Below, in pieces: positions 2,943 to 28,811 of a DNA stretch of 32,000 nt (position 1 is the stretch's first letter; each line of letters opens with the position of its first letter). The notes beneath the pieces are model-generated. The model was given only the letters and a program-made list of their open reading frames with translations, searched no databases and had not been told where the DNA came from. Origin of the DNA: Planctomycetales bacterium (GTDB lineage: Bacteria > 4484-113 > JAFGCY01); the NCBI GenBank assembly GCA_022646745.1, contig CP060262.1, positions 60,001 to 92,000 of the forward strand. Direction: 5' to 3'. Both the position numbers and the translations under genes were made by a program.

Positions 2943-3045
2943 CTCATCAGTGGCAGGCCGGCATTGCAGCGCCGGCTATCCAATCCAGACGCAGTGCCAC
3001 TGCACCTGTTCAGCTTATCAGATAAGGGGATTCCGCCAGCCTTGC

Positions 3046-4182
3046 TCAGCTGAAATCCACGGTGATCAGCGAGACATCATCGCGCCACTGGCCATGTTCG
3101 GTCAGCTCGCGGCTGCGCTTCAGCAGCATGTCGCAGTACTCGTCGGCATCCAGCTCCAGGCCGCTGCGCATCACCTGGTCACGGAACTGCTCCTCGCTCA
3201 GCCAGCGGCTGTCGTCCTGCTTGAACTCCACCAGCCCGTCCGTGAACAGCACCAGCCGGTTGCTGCTCCAGCCCAGCTGCAGTTCAACCGTGTCAATCTC
3301 ATAGCTGTCAAACATCCCGAGTGCGGGGCCGCTGGACGGGATCGATACGAATTCCGCAGTGTCGCGGTTCAGCCAGTAACTGTTGCGGTGGCCAGCATTG
3401 GCGATCCGTAGGCGCCGCTTGCTGAGGTCGATCAGCAGGCAGACCGCGGTGGATATCTGGAAGTGTTCACCAAAGCTGAGCATCGCCGTATTGAGACCGC
3501 GCAGGAATGCATCAGGCGTTTCGCACAGGGCCACATTGTCATCAAACCAGCCCTTGATGCGGGAGGCCACCATCGCGGTGACGAATCCATTGCCGCTTAC
3601 GTCGGCCTGCAGGATCGCGAGCCTGTTTTGATCAAGCAGGCGGTAGTCCTGGTAGTCCCCGCACAGCCGGCCACCGGGTATCAGCCGAGATGCCAGCCTG
3701 AAGGATCCGGTCTGCATCCCGGCCGGGGGCAGCATGCTCTGCTGCACCTGCTGGCCCTTCAACAGTTCCTCCCCCTCCGGATCGCTGCGCTTGCGGTCCA
3801 GCAAGCCGAGCAGTTGCTGGCGGTAGCGGATCATCGAGCCGACGTTTGCATTGAGCAGCTCGACCTGCAGCGGCGTGCGCAGGATCTGCATTGCGCCGTT
3901 GCTGACGGCTTCCTCGGGTTGCAGGCCGGACTTTTCATCGTGGACCGCCAGCAGCGGCACGTCGCGCAGCCGGGTGTCACCACTGATGCCCCGGATCAGG
4001 CCGGCCAGCTCGGGATGGCCATCAAGGTAGACGATCACGCATTCTGGATCGACAGCGGCAATGTCCCTGACGTAGTCTGTGCTTCCCCTGACGATGCTTA
4101 CCGCGTAGCGATCCGCGTCTAGTGAGTCCGCCAGGAACCCAAGGTCATTGTCGCCTGGATCGTAGAGGACGACCCGGGACAA
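3046..4182 (-). CDS. REC-like domain / PP2C (SpoIIE, RsbU-type) serine phosphatase
   Basis: PP2C/SpoIIE motifs are present: GDYQDY...ILQADVSGNGFVTAMVAS, ANAGHRNSYWL and LVLFTDGLVE. The N-terminal ~120 aa is receiver-like (VVLYDPGDND ... VIVYLDG ... PLLAV ... RTP). I prefer the TTG at 4182-4180 with GGAGG about 10 nt upstream over the longest TTG at 4332, which would overlap the divergent gene. Confidence 0.8.
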   Translation of the reverse strand: MSRVVLYDPGDNDLGFLADSLDADRYAVSIVRGSTDYVRDIAAVDPECVIVYLDGHPELAGLIRGISGDTRLRDVPLLAVHDEKSGLQPEEAVSNGAMQILRTPLQVELLNANVGSMIRYRQQLLGLLDRKRSDPEGEELLKGQQVQQSMLPPAGMQTGSFRLASRLIPGGRLCGDYQDYRLLDQNRLAILQADVSGNGFVTAMVASRIKGWFDDNVALCETPDAFLRGLNTAMLSFGEHFQISTAVCLLIDLSKRRLRIANAGHRNSYWLNRDTAEFVSIPSSGPALGMFDSYEIDTVELQLGWSSNRLVLFTDGLVEFKQDDSRWLSEEQFRDQVMRSGLELDADEYCDMLLKRSRELTEHGQWRDDVSLITVDFS

Positions 4183-9422: not shown

Positions 9423-10276
9423 CCGACACCTCCCGCCTTGGAGGCCCGGTAGCGCGGGTAGATCACCGTCGTCGCCAGCAGGATCAGTGCCGCGACCACG
9501 GCCTGGAACAGTGCGCTCCAGATCCACAGCAGGCCGTTGTTCATCAGGAATGGCATCGTGACCGGCCCCTGGCTCCAGGTGAACACCGAGGGGTTGAAGA
9601 TCTCCATCGCGCTGAACAGCGGGTTCATCAGGAAGGAGAACACCCCGAGCCAGTAGATCGGCACCACCGGTGGGGTGGATGACAGCGCACCCTTCATGAT
9701 GCCGCCGAAGATCAGCGTCACCGCGCCGAGCGTGATCAGGAAGAAGAAGCTGCGCCCGAGTGCCGTGCGCACGTCGTCGCTGATCAGCGAGAGCATCAGC
9801 CCGAGCGCCGAGATCATCAGCGTCATGCCGACCACCACCACCGCCAGCTGCATGAACTGCAGCGTCGTCAGGCCGCCGAAGGTGAAGGCCAGTGCGTAGA
9901 TCGGCATCGCCGTGATCACCAGCAGGAACAGGAAGCCCGTCGAGCTCAGGTACTTGCCGAGCACGATCTCGAAGCTCTTGAACAGTGTCAGGTTCAGCAG
10001 CTCAAAAGTGTCCTGGTCCTTCTCATGCGCGATCGTCGAGGCATTCAGTGACAATGCCAGCAACAGCGACATGATCATCTGCGCGATGAATGTCGTGATG
10101 CACAGCGCCAGCCCGACCTGGCTGGAGGTCGAGGCGCGCGTCTGCAGTTCGGTGTAGCGGGCGAGGTACACGAAGAAGGACACGCCGCCGAGGATGATCG
10201 TATATGTCATGATCAGCCCCAGGGTGGCGATGCCCCGTGCCCGCTGCCTGTATTCCTTCAGGATGATTGACAACAC
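9419..10276 (-). CDS. ABC-2 type transporter permease
   Basis: 285 aa with a GTG start and six hydrophobic segments. The N-terminal IILKEYRQRAR and loop motif HEKDQDTFELLNLTLFKSFEIVLGKYL match the ABC-2 (NosY/GldF/COG1277-like) permease pattern. Confidence 0.7.
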   Translation of the reverse strand: MLSIILKEYRQRARGIATLGLIMTYTIILGGVSFFVYLARYTELQTRASTSSQVGLALCITTFIAQMIMSLLLALSLNASTIAHEKDQDTFELLNLTLFKSFEIVLGKYLSSTGFLFLLVITAMPIYALAFTFGGLTTLQFMQLAVVVVGMTLMISALGLMLSLISDDVRTALGRSFFFLITLGAVTLIFGGIMKGALSSTPPVVPIYWLGVFSFLMNPLFSAMEIFNPSVFTWSQGPVTMPFLMNNGLLWIWSALFQAVVAALILLATTVIYPRYRASKAGGVG

Positions 10277-10278
10277 TG

Positions 10279-11946
10279 TTAGCTTTCCCCCCCTGGCTCA
10301 AGCCAGTCGAATGCGCTGATTCCCCGGTCGCCGCCCTGCCAGAAGCTCATGTACCAGCAGGAGGCGGTCCCGGAGGACTCAAAGACAACCTTGTCAACAG
10401 CCGGGACAAAGCCGCCCCGCACCCAGTGCGGCAGCTCCATCCCGTCAATCCGCGACCCGTCCTGCGGGTCCAGCACCTCAAGTGCGGTGTACATCACCTG
10501 CAGCGGTTCACCGTCACGCACCGCCTGGCGCATCTCGCGCTGCTTCTCCTGCTGCTCCTCACTGGCCATCTGGCGCAGGGCCAGCGTGTCAGCGGTCAGC
10601 TGCTCGAGCCGCTCGCGGTTGGCAGCGATTGACTGCCAGACCGGCGGGTCGCCCAGCGGCAGCGGCGAGACCCGCATGAACAGGTCCTGCGGTGCCAGCT
10701 CCGGCTGGTACCAGTAGTTCTGCACCAGCAGGCCGTTGGCAAAGCCGCGCAGGCTGGCAACCGGCTGCAGGTCGCGCCGTTCCCAGCGCAGCTGGCCATC
10801 ACTGCCGATGAACAGCATCAGGCCGTAGTCGAAGGCCAGCACGATGCCGTCCGGCCGGACCACGGTGGAGATGTTGTCCAGCAGCGCCCCATCAAAGGCG
10901 CTCTGGCCCTCCAGCCCGATCCGCTCGTTGGCGTCCTGCACCATCCGCTCGCGCTGTGCATCATCCAGCAGGTAGCTGTAGTCATAGCTCCAGGCCACGC
11001 TGCCATCCTGCTGGTTCAGCGCATCGCAGCGCTCGTCCAGGAAGCACAGGTACAGCAGGCCGTTGGCATCATCCACCGCCATCGCGGTCACATCTGAAGC
11101 GTCAGCCATGCTCCAGCGCAGCTCCCCGCCGGCGGCATCCCAGGCCCAGATATTGCGAGCCGTGTTGCGCGCGAACAGCATCCCGTCCTCCGAGCGCACG
11201 ATGTCAACCGGGGTGGATTGTGTCGCTCCACGCCAGCTGGTCTCGCCATCCAACCCCAGCACGTTGACGCTGTCCTCGTCGCCAAATGTGATCGATTCAT
11301 CATGCAGCAGGAAGCCGATCGGCCGCCGGTCGCGGAAGCCCTGCCAAAGGCACTGCGGCTCATCCACGCTGACATCGAAGATCATCTTCTCGCCGTTCAG
11401 TCCCATTAGCATCAGCAGCTTCCCGCTGGGATGCATGCACTGCCCGGAGAACAGGATCGTGTCCCCGTTGCTGCGGGCGGCACGGCTGCGCGTGGCATTC
11501 TGCGTGGCAGCCGGGACCTGCATCCCCATCAGGTAGCGGTTGAAGATCTCCTCGCCGCTATCCACGTCGAGGCAGGCCAGCTGCTGGGAATAGGCCGTGA
11601 TGTACAGCCGGCCGTCATAGTGCGTCATGCCGGACAGCCACCAGCGCGAGAAGCTGCCCGCACTGTACTGCCAGTCCCAGCTGGATTCGCGGGCCAGCGG
11701 CATCTTCAGTTCCGCGCTGCAGTAATTGCTGTCGCCCTGCCCGCCGTAAGCTGACAGCCAGGCGCGGCTGTCATTGCCCTCCAGCTTACTGCCCTGCACC
11801 AGCTCCGCCAGCCTTGCGCTGTCCACCCGGCGTGCCGGGTCCTCGGCCTGCCTGCGTTCACCGCAGGCGGACAGCAGGCACAGCAGCACAGCGGACGCGA
11901 GGCCCGCGGCCCGGATATGCGTGCGGATGTTGCTGCTGAAAATCAC
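10279..11946 (-). CDS. PQQ-like (BamB-type) beta-propeller lipoprotein
   Basis: The GTG at 11946-11944 overlaps the upstream stop (GTGA). The lipoprotein signal is IRAAGLASAVLLCLLSAC. Propeller motifs recur (GGELRWS, DGSVAWSYDY, DGQLRWERRD, IWAWDA). The 162-aa N-terminal extension in the ORF track is an out-of-frame overlap with the upstream gene. Confidence 0.7.
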   Translation of the reverse strand: MIFSSNIRTHIRAAGLASAVLLCLLSACGERRQAEDPARRVDSARLAELVQGSKLEGNDSRAWLSAYGGQGDSNYCSAELKMPLARESSWDWQYSAGSFSRWWLSGMTHYDGRLYITAYSQQLACLDVDSGEEIFNRYLMGMQVPAATQNATRSRAARSNGDTILFSGQCMHPSGKLLMLMGLNGEKMIFDVSVDEPQCLWQGFRDRRPIGFLLHDESITFGDEDSVNVLGLDGETSWRGATQSTPVDIVRSEDGMLFARNTARNIWAWDAAGGELRWSMADASDVTAMAVDDANGLLYLCFLDERCDALNQQDGSVAWSYDYSYLLDDAQRERMVQDANERIGLEGQSAFDGALLDNISTVVRPDGIVLAFDYGLMLFIGSDGQLRWERRDLQPVASLRGFANGLLVQNYWYQPELAPQDLFMRVSPLPLGDPPVWQSIAANRERLEQLTADTLALRQMASEEQQEKQREMRQAVRDGEPLQVMYTALEVLDPQDGSRIDGMELPHWVRGGFVPAVDKVVFESSGTASCWYMSFWQGGDRGISAFDWLEPGGES

Positions 11947-19776: not shown

Positions 19777-20025
19777 ATGGCTACAAAGGCATTGCTCTGC
19801 GGTTCCTGCGGCTTCGGCTCAGATGAAAAGCGCTGCGTGAAGTGCGGCGACCCATTCGGCGAGATCCCGGCCAAGCTCTGTGATTCCTGCGGCTTCGGCT
19901 CGGACGGGGTGAAGTGCATCAAGTGCGGCGACCCCTTCGGCAAGGTGCCGGCCCTGCTGTGCGGCTCCTGCGGCTTCGGCAGCGCGGCTGACAACTGCGT
20001 CAAGTGCGGCGGCTGGGCCAGCTGA
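19777..20025 (+). CDS. small cysteine-rich protein: three tandem C-x2-C-x8-C-x2-C (zinc-ribbon-like) repeats
   Basis: 82 aa with 12 Cys at a strict 27-aa period (LCxSCGFGS-x4-C-x-KCGDPFG-x2-PA). Differences between the three 81-bp DNA repeats are largely synonymous (tgc/tgt, tca/tcg/agc, cca/ccc), which supports translation. There is no obvious SD, and the antisense 79-aa ORF is a shadow. Confidence 0.6.
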   Translation: MATKALLCGSCGFGSDEKRCVKCGDPFGEIPAKLCDSCGFGSDGVKCIKCGDPFGKVPALLCGSCGFGSAADNCVKCGGWAS

Positions 20026-20209: not shown

Positions 20210-21052
20210 TTAGCCCTTGTCAATCATCCCGCTGGTGCGCACGCTCAGACGCGGCAGTTCCTTGCGCAGCACCTGCAGTTCCTGCCAGCGGATGTTGTAG
20301 GCCGCCACCACGTCCTCATCCACCATCCCGAGCTTCTCCAGCTTCGGGAAGAACAGGTACTTCATGTCTCCGATGTGCTGGAAGTGCTCGTAGCGCCGGA
20401 TCGTCTCGAGGATGTCCCGCTTCTGCACCCGCTTCGTCAGGATCAGGTACATCATGTTCGTGCGCAGCCAGTAGCGGTCGTCGAGCCAGCCCGTCGCGTT
20501 GACAAGCTGCTCCTGGTAGGCCAGCTCCACGAAGGGCAGATGGTCCGTCACGTAGCCGATCGTCCCGAGGTGGTACCACAGCAGGCTTGGCCGCAGCGGG
20601 GGCGGGATGCAGTCCAGCAGTACCTGCACCTCATCCACGTTGATCGAATGCTGCATCCGGTAGTAGGCATAGCTGCGCAGCACGATCTTCTTGTAGCTGA
20701 GCACGACGGCGCTGAAGTCCCCCAGCGGAGTGCACAGCAGGCGCTGCTCCAGTTCCTCAAAGCGGTCCTGTGCGCTGCGCACGTCCGGCACATGGAAATG
20801 GCGATGGATCACATAGTCCCAGTCGGTCAGCTCCAGCATCAGCCCGAGTGCCTCATCGGGGTCGCCCGCCACCTGGCGGACGGTCAGCCGCGCCTCATGC
20901 AGCTGCTGCTTCATCTCCTCGGGCTGGCTGTAGTGCATCAGCCGCCACAGCGGCATCTCCCATTCGGCTCCCCAGTGCGACAGGTGCCGCAGGTGCGCGA
21001 ACATGCGCTCGGTGGCAAGCTGGTCAATATTGAAGCTGTCAGCATATTCCAT
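20210..21052 (-). CDS. hypothetical protein (helical, W/Y/H-rich), no recognised family
   Basis: The minus-strand frame has protein-like composition, while the overlapping plus-strand ORF 20051-21073 looks like an antisense shadow. I prefer the ATG at 21052 with GGAG 8 nt upstream; the longest form starts at the TTG at 21121. Confidence 0.6.
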   Translation of the reverse strand: MEYADSFNIDQLATERMFAHLRHLSHWGAEWEMPLWRLMHYSQPEEMKQQLHEARLTVRQVAGDPDEALGLMLELTDWDYVIHRHFHVPDVRSAQDRFEELEQRLLCTPLGDFSAVVLSYKKIVLRSYAYYRMQHSINVDEVQVLLDCIPPPLRPSLLWYHLGTIGYVTDHLPFVELAYQEQLVNATGWLDDRYWLRTNMMYLILTKRVQKRDILETIRRYEHFQHIGDMKYLFFPKLEKLGMVDEDVVAAYNIRWQELQVLRKELPRLSVRTSGMIDKG

Positions 21053-21190
21053 CTGCCCTGCTCCAAGGCGTAGCAATCGTCTACCTACAATGTAGTACAG
21101 GCCGTAGTCCTGCGATGCCAATTGCGATCAAATCCAGATCAAATCAGGCTCGACGGAATGAGGACGAATCCCGTCCGGAATTAGCTGCAG

Positions 21191-21233: not shown

Positions 21234-21920
21234 ATGAGCGCCGCAATCCAGAAGAACTACTTCCTGCTCAGACGGCTGCACAGCCTGTCGGGGATCATCC
21301 CGGTCGGTGCATTCTTCCTGTTGCACATGTTCCTCAACAGCCGTGCCGCACAGTCCCCGCAGCAGTACCAGTGGGTCCCCGATTTCCTCGACCAGATCCC
21401 CTACCTCTGGGCGCTGGAGATCGGCGGTATCTTCATCCCGATCCTGTTCCACGCCATCCTCGGCGTGGTGATCGCAACCAAGGCGGAGCACAACGTGACC
21501 CGCCCGAAGCACGGCTGGGCCGAGAACTGGGGCTACACCTTCCAGCGCATCACCGGCGTGCTGCTGTTCATCATGATCATGGTGCACCTCTGGCAGACCT
21601 GGTGGGTGCACACCCGCATCAAGCTTGGCAACGCCCAGAACGGCACGCATACCGAGTTCGAGATCTACAGCCTGATGAACGGCCTGCTGAAGGACAGCTG
21701 GGTGATGACTACGCTCTACGCCCTGTTCGTGCTGATCGCGGCCTGGCACTTCGGCAACGGCATCTACAACTTCGCCTGCAAGTGGGGCTTCTCTACAAGC
21801 AGGGAGAGCCAGCGCTTCGCGCTCACACTGGGCCTCGGAATCGGCGCAATCGGCGTGCTGCTGGGCTTCGCATCGATCTGGGGCCTGACCCTGGCTCCCT
21901 GGGCCGCGGCGGCCCAGTAG
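21234..21920 (+). CDS. sdhC: succinate dehydrogenase/fumarate reductase cytochrome b subunit (b558, type B)
   Basis: 228 aa with five TM segments. The N-terminal NYFLLRRLHSLSGIIPVGAFFLLHMFLNS and several conserved His residues are typical of the b558 family. GGAGGAG precedes the ATG. Confidence 0.85.
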   Translation: MSAAIQKNYFLLRRLHSLSGIIPVGAFFLLHMFLNSRAAQSPQQYQWVPDFLDQIPYLWALEIGGIFIPILFHAILGVVIATKAEHNVTRPKHGWAENWGYTFQRITGVLLFIMIMVHLWQTWWVHTRIKLGNAQNGTHTEFEIYSLMNGLLKDSWVMTTLYALFVLIAAWHFGNGIYNFACKWGFSTSRESQRFALTLGLGIGAIGVLLGFASIWGLTLAPWAAAAQ

Positions 21921-21926
21921 GAGGAA

Positions 21927-22454
21927 ATGGCAATGGTCCAGCAGGACAACAGTCGCAAGCACCCGGTCTACTTCTGCTTCCATGCGGAACGCGACCGGCA
22001 GCGCGCACTGCATGTCTCGGCCCTGACCGGCACGGTGGACCAGAACCGCCTCAGTGACTGGACGGACGAGAGCTGGGAAGCGGCAGCTGAGCTGGGTGAG
22101 CAGGGCCTGCAGGAATTGATTGACGAGAAGCTCGGCGACAGCGCGGTCACCTGCCTGCTGGTCGGCGAACGCACCTTCGAAAAGCCCTGGATCGGCGCGA
22201 TGTTGCAGCGCAGCCTCGAACTTGAGCGAGGCATCCTGGCAATCCATGTGCACGACATACCGGACGAGAATGGCAATACCGTGAAGAAGGGGCCGAACCC
22301 GATGGGCCGCCTGACATACCCTGGACGCGACAGGCAGCAGTACCCCTTCACATCTGCCTACCCGACATATGACTGGAAACATTCTGACGGCGACCGGAAT
22401 GTCGCAGCCTGGATCGAGAAGTCAATGGACCCGTCAGGGACGGGCATAGATTAG
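21927..22454 (+). CDS. TIR-like domain protein (MTH538/DUF1863, ThsB-type pattern)
   Basis: 175 aa. The ATG lies 6 nt after the sdhC stop, with AGGAGG in between. Motif layout is VYFCFHAERD ... VTCLLVGERTFEKPWIGAML ... GILAIHVHDIPDENGNTVKKGPNP. This follows the ThsB/DUF1863 pattern recalled from memory, not from a search. Confidence 0.6.
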   Translation: MAMVQQDNSRKHPVYFCFHAERDRQRALHVSALTGTVDQNRLSDWTDESWEAAAELGEQGLQELIDEKLGDSAVTCLLVGERTFEKPWIGAMLQRSLELERGILAIHVHDIPDENGNTVKKGPNPMGRLTYPGRDRQQYPFTSAYPTYDWKHSDGDRNVAAWIEKSMDPSGTGID

Positions 22455-22499
22455 GAGCACCACGGTGCCGCCTGGTGGCTGCACCACAGGAAACTGGCA

Positions 22500-24356: not shown

Positions 24357-24405
24357 GAGGCCCGGTGTCAGCCGGGCAACGGAGGCCAGACGAGAGTCTG
24401 GCAAC
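24356..24405 (+). repeat. two GGAGG-prefixed hairpins directly after the sdhA stop
   Basis: TAGGAGG lies at 24354-24360. The first hairpin is CCCGG-loop-CCGGG (24361-24376), followed by CAAC. Then comes GGAGG + CCAGAC-GAGA-GTCTGG + CAAC (24381-24405). Confidence 0.9.
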
Positions 24406-24570
24406 TAAGCTACTTGTTTAAATGGTTGCGGGGGCTACCCGTTGCAGTGCTTGTACGGAGCTCTGCTGACAACATGGTCAAGCAGCTGCCTTCCGGAGTG
24501 CATTGCACCCCTTGACAGGCCGTCCCTATACAGGCAACCAGGCTGGATACGATTTGCAGCCTGACCCTAC

Positions 24571-26490
24571 CTACTTCAGGATGCTCAACTTAAGCGGGTC
24601 ATTCAGCCTGGAGGTGAAGGCGGCAGGCAGACCACCCAGTGTTCCCGCCTCCACCATCGAATAGGAGTAGGAGGAGACATTCTCCGTGACTGAGGTGATC
24701 ACACTTGCACTCGCCGGCCAGCTGCTGCCGCTGCTGTCCAGCGCGCGGATGTACTTCGCCTCCGCAATCGTATAGGGAGTCAGCGAGGACCAGCTCAGTG
24801 CCGGATGGCCAAAGCTGTCATGGAACGCCAGACTGAAGCTGAAGGCAGTGTTGGCCACAACCTGCGGGCTGTCCCAGGAGCTTGCAGTGCCATCCGTTGA
24901 CCGCACGATGTACACATTGCTGAAATCCAGGTAGGCTATCGCAAGCTTCCCGTCAAGCTCTGCCATGGCTGGCGGACAACTATCAAACAGATCAGTCTGG
25001 ATCACCAGTTCATCCGCCTGCCAGCTGCCGCCCTGTGGATCCGCAGCACGAGCCAGTCGCAGCTCTGTGTCGGGTGATCCCAAAGGTGAATGGGCAAATG
25101 CCACGCAGGGGACACCACCAAACACAAGAAGGTTGGACTGTTCCTCAATTGTCACATCGAGCTCGCTGACCTTCACCGGACTGCCCCATGTATCGCCCAG
25201 GCTGTCGCTGGCCCGGTTGTAATAAAGGTAGGACTTGCTATCGGCGTGCACGAATTGCTGGAACAGAACAGCCGGGTTTCCGTCAACGATTGCCAGACCG
25301 ACCACTGATTGCATCAGCTCCGTTTCAGGAAGCGTCACCGGGGTGCCCCAGGCGGTGCCTGCCGCATTCTGTGCCAGAACGAACCTGAGTTCGAGGTCTT
25401 CCGGCGATCCCGCGTCAATGTCCATGGAATAGGCCACACATGGCCGGCCCTGAAGCTTCGCAATGAACAGGTTCTTCAGGTAGCCATTGCTGTCAATTGC
25501 GGTCGGACCCGCCGGCCAGCTTTCGCCACTTCCATCCAGTGCACGGGTATGGCTGAGGCCGAAGTCATTACCCGTGTGCACAATCAGCGGCGCTCCGTCC
25601 GCATCGAAATCCACCCTGCCCACGACATAGGTATCTGTGCTGATGGTCGCCCCGCTGTCCTGCCAGCCGGATCCTGCAGTTACAACCACGGTTGTCAATG
25701 CACTGGCCCCGCCATCATCCGTAATGCGCAGCTTAATGGGGTAACTGCCTTCAGTGCTGATCTCGAAGCTTCCAGCCGGCGCCGTGTCCTGGCTTGTCTC
25801 GTAAGTCCCGTCGTCATCCAGATCCAGCTCATACAGAGTGATGCTCCCGTCCTGGTCTGAGCTGGCACTCGCGTCATAATTGACCGTGAATGGCGCTTCG
25901 CCGAAGGCATTGTCAACATTCAGCACTGCCAGCGGCGGCTTGTTGCCGGCAGGAGGTGTACCGATCGCAAGCCGCTCAACCGTGGCCTGTGCATCTGCCG
26001 CGATGAGCACAGCCACCAGGAACCCGCCGTCAGCCGCAAACATCCCAGTCGGATTGCCGAATGGAATGTTCTGGATCGGCGCGCTGCCCGCCTGCACGAA
26101 TTTCCAGCGGCCGCTGCCGTAATCACTGAACCCGACATACAGCCCGTTCACCGCTGCACTGCACTGCAGCTCCAGTTCAGGGTCTCCTGTGTAATCCGGC
26201 AGGCTGAAGCTGTAGATCACATAGGCAATCTCGCCTCCCATTGCTCCGCCGGCGGTAAGCACACCGCTGTTTCCTTCGATTGCCGCGTTCTGGCTGGGCA
26301 GTATCGCGGAATACTGTGCTCCGTTCAGCTCTGCACCACTTGTTTCACTGCTGCTGCGCACCAGGCTGCCCAGCGGCGGGAGTTGCTGCTGCAGCGATGC
26401 CGGTGTCATTGAGTGGTTGCTGCCGGACTGCAGGCCGGAGCTGCATCCGGCGAGGAGCAGAAGGATTAGTAAAAAAGCTGCTGGCTTCAT
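24571..26490 (-). CDS. lipoprotein with PKD domain and BNR/Asp-box beta-propeller repeats
   Basis: The signal and lipobox read MKPAAFLLILLLLAGC. A PKD-like segment reads FTVNYDASASSDQDGSITLYELDLDDDGTYE ... LRITDDGGA. Six Asp-box-like motifs are present (S/A-x-D-x-G-x-x-W: DGSGESW, AAGTAW, SLGDTW, PQGGSW, DGTASSW, SSGSSW). Confidence 0.75.
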   Translation of the reverse strand: MKPAAFLLILLLLAGCSSGLQSGSNHSMTPASLQQQLPPLGSLVRSSSETSGAELNGAQYSAILPSQNAAIEGNSGVLTAGGAMGGEIAYVIYSFSLPDYTGDPELELQCSAAVNGLYVGFSDYGSGRWKFVQAGSAPIQNIPFGNPTGMFAADGGFLVAVLIAADAQATVERLAIGTPPAGNKPPLAVLNVDNAFGEAPFTVNYDASASSDQDGSITLYELDLDDDGTYETSQDTAPAGSFEISTEGSYPIKLRITDDGGASALTTVVVTAGSGWQDSGATISTDTYVVGRVDFDADGAPLIVHTGNDFGLSHTRALDGSGESWPAGPTAIDSNGYLKNLFIAKLQGRPCVAYSMDIDAGSPEDLELRFVLAQNAAGTAWGTPVTLPETELMQSVVGLAIVDGNPAVLFQQFVHADSKSYLYYNRASDSLGDTWGSPVKVSELDVTIEEQSNLLVFGGVPCVAFAHSPLGSPDTELRLARAADPQGGSWQADELVIQTDLFDSCPPAMAELDGKLAIAYLDFSNVYIVRSTDGTASSWDSPQVVANTAFSFSLAFHDSFGHPALSWSSLTPYTIAEAKYIRALDSSGSSWPASASVITSVTENVSSYSYSMVEAGTLGGLPAAFTSRLNDPLKLSILK

Positions 26491-26594
26491 GAATTGAACC
26501 TGTCTGGCTGGATTGGCACAGATATTCTACTACGCAAAGCGCTCTGCAGGGACCAGCCGCCTGGCCGGACCTTACGCTTTGCGGGCACTTTCCA

Positions 26595-28646
26595 TCAAAG
26601 AAGCCGTTCGAATTCCCTGCGGAAGTCCTCCTGTACCTGCTTCGAAAGCAGGTATGCGCTGTGGTTGACAACCCAGGGTGATGGCAGCGGGTACTTCCTG
26701 TTCTCCGGCACGCAGGCCCCGGCATGCCACAGTAACTTGGCACTGACCACATCCCCGTGGTGCCACCAGTTGACCCAGCGGCAATGCGCGAACACACCGG
26801 GTGAACCGTGCAGGTAGCGCGCGTTGCTGACAACGCGGTCAAACACCGGCTTGCCTGAATGCAGGGCGTTGAAGGCCATCCCGATGGTGTCCAGCGGCGA
26901 GCCGAAGGTCACGAACAGCTTCAGGCGCGACTGCATCTCTCCGGCGAGGCGCATGCCCACACGCCGCTGTCCGCTGCGAAGCGTGTTCAGGTCCTCAATG
27001 CGGTCAAGCTCCTGCAGGCGTTCGAAGTAGCGGCACAGCGCCTGGTAGGCCACCACCGTGCCAAGGCTGTGGGACAGCACGATCACGTTCGGTGCCCGCC
27101 GGCGTACGTCCTCACTTGCTTCATAGCGGTCCGGCAGCTGGTTTGGCATCAGGTCGCGGCCCAGCACCTGTTCCAGCTTCTCCTCGCTGAATTGCAGGAT
27201 CTCGCGGCGCAGCCGGAACATGTCGTCATTTTCATTGGTTGACACGAAGGCTGCGACATCGCCGAGGTACTCACGGAAGAACAGCAGGCCGCGGTGGATC
27301 AGCGCCAGCCAGGTGCCAGCCAGGATCAGCAGCACAGCCAGCGCGGCACCGGTGCTGTCGCCTGCCAGCCAGCCCCTCAATGCCATTGCGATCAGCACAA
27401 GGCCTGTGCCGAATCCGAGCAGTCGTTGCCAGCTGCAGCCTTCCCTGAGGATGCGCAATCCCATCATGGCCAGCAGGGCGAGGAGGCTTGCCAGCGGAAG
27501 GGAGAGCGCCAGCCAGGCCCAGGCATGCAGCCGTGGCAGCTGTCCCAGGGCATCCGCACTGGCCTGCATCTGGGATGTCAGCACCTGCCAGTGCTGATGG
27601 CAACCCCCGGCCACCAGCCAGTATGCGATCGCCAGCAGCAGCAGGAAGCAGCTGAACACAGCTGGCCTGGCCCGTCGGTGGCGGTCGTTGCGTTTTGTGT
27701 CATTGCCGGAATGCGGAGTGCTCACGCTGCCAACAAGCACGGCTGTGCCGACATAATGCACCAAAAGCGGTAACAGCACTGCAAGCAGTGCCAGCCAGGT
27801 CGACTGCTGCAGGAGCGGCGAGTCCCCCAGCATCCATGGGTTGGCAACCACGTCATGCACACTGGCATGCAGACCTTCCCACCAGCGGTTGATCTCCATG
27901 ATTGCAGGCAGGCGGCTCGCCAGGTGCACCGCCCAGCCCGCCAGCCATCCGAGCACCACCATGCTCAGGGACATCACGATCAGCGGCAGCACGATGATTA
28001 CCACAGCCAGCCTAGTCAGCAGTTTAATCAGCCGCCAGACCTCAGCCAGGCTTTCCATCTGGCCAAAGGCCTGCCCACGGTCCTCCCCCGCTTGCTCGCC
28101 ACTGCGGCTGCGGCCCCGGGCCCGTGCCGCTTCCTGCTCATCCTGCCTGTCCGGACGTTGCCAGCGCTGCATCGTCACAAAGGCGCGCACCACTGAGCTG
28201 AGCCCTCCCAGCAGCCACAGGATGGTCTTCCAGGCCTTGGCCCGGCCACTTGTGATTGGCGCCCAGTAAACTTCGGAACAGCGGATCACCAGCCTGCGTC
28301 CGCCGAGCCTGGCTGCGATATCGGGATGCAACTGCGACGGCTGCAGTGAAAGTACGACATCGCGGTCGCGGCGTTCGCGGTGCGTATGGGTGGAGACGCG
28401 GATCTGCCTGCCATCCTGCATGATCCGGTCCGGCTCGCTGCAGAGGCTGCGTATCATGAACTGGACCAGCTCATCAAGTGTGGCATAACGGTTCTGCAGC
28501 CCCATGCCATGGAACAGTGCAATCACGAATTCACAGATCCGCTCGCCGGAATGCTGCACCTCTGCCCCTGCCGATTCATCACTGGCTGCTTTCTGCCTGA
28601 CCATCCACTGCTCCAGGATCGGATGTGTGCCTGACTTTCGGTACAC
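26595..28646 (-). CDS. membrane-embedded alpha/beta-hydrolase-like protein (catalytic core split by ~6-7 TM segments)
   Basis: The N-terminal strand with the oxyanion-type motif FVIALFHGMG and EVYWAP is followed by about 330 aa of hydrophobic segments. After that come YLGDVAAFV, the nucleophile elbow VLSHSLGT, TFGSPL, and C-terminal HHGDVV and VVNHSAYL (candidate Asp and His). The longest start is the GTG at 28646; an alternative ATG at 28604 has GGAG 7 nt upstream. Confidence 0.6.
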   Translation of the reverse strand: MYRKSGTHPILEQWMVRQKAASDESAGAEVQHSGERICEFVIALFHGMGLQNRYATLDELVQFMIRSLCSEPDRIMQDGRQIRVSTHTHRERRDRDVVLSLQPSQLHPDIAARLGGRRLVIRCSEVYWAPITSGRAKAWKTILWLLGGLSSVVRAFVTMQRWQRPDRQDEQEAARARGRSRSGEQAGEDRGQAFGQMESLAEVWRLIKLLTRLAVVIIVLPLIVMSLSMVVLGWLAGWAVHLASRLPAIMEINRWWEGLHASVHDVVANPWMLGDSPLLQQSTWLALLAVLLPLLVHYVGTAVLVGSVSTPHSGNDTKRNDRHRRARPAVFSCFLLLLAIAYWLVAGGCHQHWQVLTSQMQASADALGQLPRLHAWAWLALSLPLASLLALLAMMGLRILREGCSWQRLLGFGTGLVLIAMALRGWLAGDSTGAALAVLLILAGTWLALIHRGLLFFREYLGDVAAFVSTNENDDMFRLRREILQFSEEKLEQVLGRDLMPNQLPDRYEASEDVRRRAPNVIVLSHSLGTVVAYQALCRYFERLQELDRIEDLNTLRSGQRRVGMRLAGEMQSRLKLFVTFGSPLDTIGMAFNALHSGKPVFDRVVSNARYLHGSPGVFAHCRWVNWWHHGDVVSAKLLWHAGACVPENRKYPLPSPWVVNHSAYLLSKQVQEDFRREFERLL

Positions 28647-28811
28647 AAATCCTTAATCCGTGGAGCATATCACAGCGGTTGCCCAAGATCCTCAAGCATC
28701 GTCCAGGCCATCATCAGGCCGCTGCCTGTCCTCGGACCGACTTCCGGTGTTAAGCTATTACTCACTCCGGAAGGGCCCGCGGGCCATCCGGGCCAGACAA
28801 GGACGTTTGCA

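Follow-up and report, generated by a model that had tools for sequence, protein, structure and literature searches.

The gene lying between sdhC and sdhA in the 32-kb stretch of DNA analysed here (the window) encodes a protein that seems to be a domesticated, catalytically dead ThsB, that is, an immune protein that has been re-purposed. In the current view, TIR domains are either enzymes or adaptors of immunity; this one, of the ThsB type and lacking catalysis, has long been kept by selection within a housekeeping respiratory gene cluster. Overall, we tentatively favour, at somewhat less than even probability, a pseudoenzyme TIR of the ThsB family that was anciently captured and would act as a non-enzymatic binder, its likeliest partner being the flavoprotein of complex II.

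Organisation of the sdh locus

The first-pass annotation of this DNA described a TIR-like ORF wedged inside a succinate dehydrogenase operon. The same-strand ORF of 175 aa is present where it was reported, beginning 6 nt downstream of sdhC and with the sdhA start 45 nt further on (Table 1), but the cluster is not intact: sdhA and sdhB are 4.4 kb apart, with two minus-strand genes between them (24357–28811). The AGGAGG assigned to the ORF is likewise present, and it refines the start. As it is placed 8 nt from the ATG at 21933 and only 2 nt from that at 21927, the true start is probably 21933, giving a protein of 173 aa, and gene callers use the equivalent start for P0001, which is 99% identical to the TIR protein of the window. 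No promoter-like or terminator-like sites were seen between sdhC and sdhA. L005, L003, L014 and L015 keep the motif that precedes the sdhA start, and in L006/L001/L002 the TIR gene overlaps the sdhA start. The G+C content of the window is ~60–66%, with a dip to 54–58% near 16–17.5 kb; there was no compositional break at the TIR locus and no tRNA gene in the window.

Table 1. Features of the sdhC–sdhB region, in window coordinates.
Feature	Coordinates	Strand	Evidence
sdhC, dihaem cytochrome b558-type membrane anchor, 228 aa	21234–21920	+	Pfam Sdh_cyt 8.4e-13
AGGAGG, ribosome-binding site of the TIR gene	21919–21924	+	Read from sequence; overlaps sdhC stop codon
TIR gene, ThsB-family, without catalytic Glu, 175 aa (173 aa from 21933)	21927–22454	+	PF08937, PADLOC ThsB1, AF2/Foldseek, omega
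Codons 74–98: strand beta-3, GERT loop, helix alpha-C (former active-site region)	22146–22220	+	Conservation across subclades
Met92 codon ATG, catalytic-Glu position (BcThsB E85)	22200–22202	+	Alignment to solved ThsB structures
45-nt spacer with sdhA ribosome-binding region (CACAGGAAACTGGCA ahead of ATG)	22455–22499	+	Sequence
sdhA, flavoprotein subunit, 618 aa	22500–24356	+	NCBIfam NF006392 924 bits (cut-off 855); Pfam FAD_binding_2 and Succ_DH_flav_C
Lipoprotein with PKD domain, 639 aa	24571–26490	-	Pfam PKD_4 2.2e-9, weak LPAM_1 match
683-aa gene, family not recognised	26595–28646	-	No Pfam, PADLOC or PDB match
sdhB, iron-sulfur subunit, 252 aa	28812–29570	+	Pfam Fer2_3 6.4e-28 and Fer4 domains

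The sdhC product also matched NCBIfam TIGR02046 (b558 family) at 5.8e-24, under the model cut-off, and a search for SdhC homologues found 996. Of the two genes that separate sdhA from sdhB, the 639-aa lipoprotein has Asp-box-like repeats (by eye only), and the translation of the 683-aa gene, read by eye, is hydrophobic in its central part and contains SHSLGT, a GxSxG-like motif. Orthologues of both occur in L004, L006 and L003 (order swapped in L003) and are absent from L005, where sdhC-TIR-sdhA-sdhB are contiguous; because of this contiguous cluster, the sdhA/sdhB split is taken as a separate event of narrower extent.

Several further genes were observed around the sdh genes. Proteins ~30% identical to the C-terminal repeat region of the 639-aa lipoprotein adjoin sdh genes in three arrangements, namely downstream of the detached sdhC in L009 (5000–5884), between sdhC and sdhA in L011 (6699–7343) and at 24571–26490 in the window; this proximity may reflect chance within a large paralogous family or a real association. 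Upstream of sdhC, an 82-aa protein with repeated CxxC zinc-ribbon units (19777–20025, plus strand; Pfam PHF5-like and DZR matches) is conserved ahead of the sdh genes of L003, L005 and L006 (77–83% identity), and a 79-aa antisense ORF runs over nearly the whole of its gene. A 303-aa ORF of no known family (20210–21121, minus strand) is divergent to sdhC; it is found at 68–99% identity in L004, L006 and L003, with omega 0.2–0.3, and is absent from L005.

Family and fold of the TIR protein

The TIR protein matched Pfam PF08937 (ThsB_TIR/DUF1863) at 40.8 bits, over a cut-off of 21.2, with 97 of the 100 profile positions covered. The only other Pfam hit, PF13676 (TIR_2), which the first-pass annotation had named beside PF08937 for an HMM check, fell below its cut-off. 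Among PADLOC profiles, ThsB1 (PDLC00431) gave 3.5e-31 and PDLC00433 1.1e-24, the top-scoring model being PDC-M50B (1e-31), which covered nearly the whole protein. Sequence matches in the PDB were to ThsB chains, 9B7D/6LHY at 6e-18 and 8WCF at 9e-16.

An AlphaFold2 model, built from a 63-sequence alignment, gave a pLDDT of 93.1 and a pTM of 0.88. The top Foldseek matches of this model in the PDB were 8WCF (1.1e-12; TM 0.69/0.75), 9B7D and 6LHY (E-values from 1e-12 to 1e-10), and after these EcThsB and BcThsB structures came a Bacillus TIR, DNPH1/NDT enzymes and the SARM1 TIR. Structure prediction and fold search, proposed at the outset as checks, thus agree with the profile searches, and the initial ThsB/DUF1863 assignment is borne out; the three motifs quoted in its support are all present in the protein. 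The family core is also retained, since 22 of the residues that are invariant in the sdh-linked clade described below are the majority residue of 148 family representatives, among them D23, R26, W50, G80, T83, W88, S96, H109, D113, G122, P125, Y148, W150 and W162. Judged from profile matches and predicted structure, the protein is a member of the ThsB family with a ThsB-type TIR fold.

The catalytic position

In BcThsB, E85 is the catalytic glutamate, and the substitution E85Q abolishes both defence and 3'cADPR production (10.1101/2021.01.06.425286; PMC10022894). Solved ThsB structures carry WVRYE or WVKYE at the stretch which reads W-I-G-A-M in the TIR protein, so that the BcThsB glutamate (W-V-R-Y-E), and likewise that of EcThsB, aligns with Met92. 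The same result was obtained in three independent alignments, upholding the Glu-to-Met replacement that had been suggested from the window sequence.

A HMMER search of 1.84 billion cluster representatives returned 1032 family members, and the catalytic column was read from an alignment of the best 149 representatives outside the window's own subclade (A). Glutamate is found there in 127, alanine in 16, threonine in three, glycine in two and methionine in one, the sole methionine being that of P0127, which itself belongs to the sdh-linked clade (subclade B). Met92 is present in all nine clade members and in none of the 148 other family representatives, 86% of which have glutamate. The tyrosine preceding the catalytic glutamate, present in 126 of the 149, has been lost in the clade.

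Furthermore, E81, R82, I89 and L93 are invariant together with Met92 in the nine clade sequences. Residues 74–98 form the most conserved part of the protein, with 12 of 25 (48%) invariant across both subclades, compared with only 8–10% in the alpha-B region and C-terminal tail; in total, 37 alignment columns are invariant over all nine sequences. Because these signature residues and the 74–98 region are so conserved, the former site has been remodelled and afterwards held fixed, rather than merely decaying. With the catalytic glutamate missing, the protein is predicted neither to consume NAD+ nor to produce a cADPR-type or His-ADPR signal upon infection.

Two other readings of the site were considered. 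The possibility that C17, H19, M92 and H109 make up a new metal site was ruled out, H19 being Asn in P0276 and C17 being Ser in P0277. A relocation of the catalytic glutamate to E81 or E85 is unlikely, both residues also occurring in Glu-bearing members (17/149 and 21/149, respectively).

Outside the clade, 16 of the 149 nearest ThsB-family representatives have alanine at the catalytic position and a further five have threonine or glycine, so loss of the catalytic glutamate recurs in the subfamily, well beyond the sdh-linked clade.

Gene order in related lineages

Close homologues of the TIR protein (59–99% identity) were found in MAGs labelled 'UBP7 HKST-UBA01' and 'HKST-UBA03', in 'Planctomycetales bacterium Ww346' and in metagenomes, and wherever their context is visible, sdhC and sdhA flank them. 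Three of the MAGs with the gene include the contigs JAGRNR010000067.1, JAGRNT010000015.1 and JAHEFU010000034.1. Subclade A, with the order sdhC-TIR-sdhA, comprises the window, L004, L006/L001/L002, L005 and L003. Subclade B consists of P0127, P0276 and P0277, which are 35–46% identical to subclade A in the TIR protein and keep the methionine; two of its three lineages (L014 and L015/L016/L018) have the order sdhC-TIR-sdhA(-sdhB). The survey of synteny suggested by the first-pass annotation therefore finds an sdhC-X-sdhA order that recurs in relatives of two subclades, between which the TIR proteins are ~40% identical and SdhA+B ~73%. In eight of the nine clade lineages with visible context, the TIR gene is located exactly between sdhC and sdhA, even where the remaining cluster has been rearranged. 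P0277, on a 1.4-kb contig (L017), is found outside sdh, beside an unrelated membrane-protein fragment and, on its other side, a gene resembling a mechanosensitive channel by eye. The upstream fragment was tested as a divergent SdhC and is not SdhC.

Not every lineage with a related enzyme has the TIR gene. At 50–64% SdhC identity, the TIR-less relatives L012/L013 and L022 have plain sdhCAB, and in L011 the sdhC/sdhA junction holds an unrelated 702-aa gene and the sdhA/sdhB junction a DUF6448 gene. The plain sdhCAB clusters of L012 and L022 indicate that the TIR protein is dispensable for complex II as such. Detachment of sdhC from sdhA was seen in L007, L009 and the P0050 locus. A search for TIR remnants in the sdhC–sdhA spacers of L012 and L022, and across L007, L009 and L011, gave only noise. 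No extra clade members were found in IMG/VR, and JGI metagenome contigs yielded one locus, apparently a second copy of an already-known contig; as the clade is rare, wide synteny statistics could not be drawn from it.

Selection and evolutionary history

The TIR gene is under clear purifying selection, with an omega of 0.23–0.26 at dS > 1, and its reading frame is unbroken in nine of nine lineages. The first-pass annotation had left room for an ORF with no fold match, or with neither conservation nor selection; what was found instead are strong matches, a kept position and this low omega. The protein nonetheless changes quickly in comparison with its neighbours. Amino acid identity to the window among relatives is 59–67% for the TIR protein and 81–94% for SdhC, SdhA and SdhB. 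The rate of the TIR gene is 3–4 times (roughly 3.4-fold) that of the sdh genes. The dS of the TIR gene is 2–4 times that of the flanking genes, partly because of weaker codon bias, GC3 being 0.78 for the TIR gene and 0.90–0.92 for the sdh genes.

By SdhC (94% identical), L006 is the sister of the window, but their TIR proteins are only 61–65% identical, and that of the window is nearer to the TIR proteins of lineages whose SdhC is only 82–83% identical, so the TIR and SdhC trees are in conflict. Between the window and L006, nucleotide identity falls sharply at the borders of the TIR gene. This pattern suggests either in-place (cassette-style) exchange of TIR alleles or strong rate variation between lineages. 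For the L006 TIR gene itself (9989–10546), dS to the window is 1.2, the flanking genes showing 91–94% identity and dS values of 0.28–0.41.

In the tree of SdhA+SdhB, L014, which has the TIR gene, is placed with L022 (81% bootstrap) and L012 (92%), both of which lack it, and not with the subclade of the window. Moreover, the ~40% TIR identity between subclades is the value expected from a ~3.4-fold rate at the observed Sdh distance. Since both the Sdh trees and the TIR rates fit, these sequences are most simply explained by a single old insertion with clean losses afterwards. Inheritance of the TIR gene since its capture is mostly vertical, in a lineage that includes MAGs of the candidate phylum UBP7. 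The position in sdh is fixed across two deep subclades, which differs from a mobile, patchy, island-type distribution, and the only trait of the clade that recalls mobile genes is the disagreement of the TIR tree with that of SdhC. The earlier proposal of a defence-derived domain that landed in a respiratory operon agrees with the existence of canonical kin beside SIR2 ThsA, but the capture is ancient rather than recent.

Possible roles of the TIR protein

A role linked to complex II, as suggested by gene position, is the single most likely option, at a probability that nevertheless stays below one half. The TIR gene entered the sdhC–sdhA junction long ago and has since been kept by purifying selection; its protein would be made from the sdh transcript, with translation coupled to that of sdhA in some lineages. 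As a non-enzymatic binder, the protein may hold a nucleotide-like ligand or another protein through the face of the former active site, which is still highly conserved. The complex II flavoprotein would be the likeliest partner or process, the TIR protein serving, for example, as a non-essential accessory in SdhA assembly or regulation, and an immune TIR domain would thereby have been domesticated into respiration. The narrower proposal, that an immune TIR pseudoenzyme was recruited as a lineage-specific complex II accessory, either a helper of SdhA assembly or flavinylation or a nucleotide-sensing (NAD+, ADPR, FAD-like) regulator, is rather unlikely when taken by itself. Arguing against a complex II role are the relatives with plain sdhCAB, the permissive junctions, the location of P0277 outside sdh, the weaker codon bias and the defence-like tempo. 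As junctions take up unrelated genes and sdhC is often detached, the position of the TIR gene could also be a historical accident.

A second reading is a functional passenger: the protein would have some role in the cytoplasm that concerns neither complex II nor defence, and its gene would stay in place only because selection keeps sdhC and sdhA together. Unrelated genes do enter the sdh junctions of the lineage, and the cluster is often disrupted; sister lineages have complex II and no TIR gene, P0277 has its place elsewhere, and the rate and codon bias of the TIR gene are unlike those of sdh genes. However, eight of the nine clade lineages with visible context keep the exact position, and the junctions are tight to the point of overlap with the sdhA start in L006/L001/L002. 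We consider a passenger unlikely.

The protein might still serve defence. It would then be a ThsB-like paralogue without catalysis, acting as a sensor, decoy or regulator alongside a catalytic TIR or an effector whose gene lies elsewhere, and the sdh promoter would merely keep its expression steady. Its best HMM matches are to ThsB1 and the defence candidate PDC-M50B, and plasmid-borne relatives with W-V-x-[YH]-E adjoin a SIR2-family ThsA and a second TIR gene, forming canonical Thoeris loci. Fast evolution together with tree conflict fits a defence gene better than a stoichiometric subunit: dS is 2–4 times that of the flanks, and the disagreement with the SdhC tree hints at in-place allele exchange. 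The gene has been lost in several lineages, with one copy outside sdh, and the loss of the catalytic glutamate is recurrent in the subfamily (Ala in 16/149).

On the other side, without the catalytic glutamate no signal is to be expected (10.1101/2021.01.06.425286; PMC10022894). Neither Pfam nor PADLOC detected a ThsA-like or other defence gene in the 32-kb window, which upholds the original remark that a ThsA-like partner is missing there; a PADLOC scan of 10 neighbouring proteins gave no match, and no SIR2, SLOG or Macro protein is listed in the Pfam gene tables of related loci. P0128, the nearest Glu-bearing relative, has a GGDEF neighbour on a short contig and is uninformative on ThsA. Moreover, the gene occupies one chromosomal site across ~27% SdhA+B divergence, unlike patchy, island-borne defence genes, and no copies of the clade were found in phages, viral contigs or plasmids. 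A continuing role in defence is, on balance, likewise unlikely. Finally, a decaying pseudogene or chance ORF without function, as might be suspected from the lost catalytic residue and the absence of the gene from related lineages, is extremely improbable and effectively refuted by the intact frame in nine of nine lineages, the omega of 0.23–0.26 at dS > 1, the 37 invariant columns over nine sequences from subclades only ~40% identical and the confidently predicted fold.

Two loci carry other genes of note. In L015, a gene for a patatin-like phospholipase (109–1368) immediately precedes sdhC on its strand (patatin-sdhC-TIR-sdhA) and has no counterpart in the window; patatin domains are common defence effectors. 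A HicB-like/HicA toxin-antitoxin pair (2994–3439) occurs in L003, upstream of syntenic epimerase-aminotransferase genes, and is not found at the equivalent place in the window.

If the proposed link to complex II is true, the TIR protein would add a new type of accessory factor to an enzyme that has been studied very thoroughly, and it would be an example of an immune protein domesticated within bacteria. Even without that link, the clade is a natural, conserved Glu-to-Met ThsB pseudoenzyme, with which the function of a TIR pocket unable to cleave NAD+ could be studied. The case also shows that a match to a defence HMM, here PADLOC ThsB, is not enough to infer a defence system.

Comparison with known systems

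Complex II has known accessories, such as the flavinylation factor SdhE/SDHAF2 and supernumerary subunits, for example the mycobacterial SdhF. Like these, the clade protein is small and not universally required; it is encoded in the sdh cluster beside sdhA and may serve complex II. It has no homology to them, however, Pfam giving only ThsB_TIR and TIR_2. A review of complex II covers SdhE/SDHAF factors and supernumerary subunits and nothing TIR-like (PMC10238741). In the literature searched, we found neither a link between DUF1863 and succinate dehydrogenase nor a description of a Thoeris-type TIR fold in core energy metabolism.

Non-catalytic adaptor TIR domains are known, for instance, from animal MyD88/TLR proteins. 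The clade would resemble these in using a TIR-type fold for binding rather than for NAD+ cleavage, but there is no sequence relation beyond the fold (Foldseek E 0.04–0.06), and the context of the clade is metabolic, not immune.

Component B of the PADLOC candidate system PDC-M50 is the best-scoring model, over nearly the whole protein. However, no partner gene in the window matches any PADLOC model, and the TIR protein scores 108 bits against PDC-M50B, far under ordinary subfamily members (P0128, 197 bits).

The closest likeness is to Thoeris ThsB (type I, ThsB1 class; BcThsB 6LHY/9B7D and EcThsB 8WCF), with which the clade shares PF08937, a length of ~160–175 aa, the predicted fold and the 22 core residues. 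In contrast to ThsB, which has W-V-x-Y-E, the clade has W-I-x-x-M, both the glutamate and the preceding tyrosine being replaced, and there is no adjacent ThsA (SIR2-SLOG or TM-Macro). Furthermore, ThsB is carried in a defence island or on a plasmid, whereas the TIR gene of the clade is found in a respiratory operon and is inherited mostly vertically.
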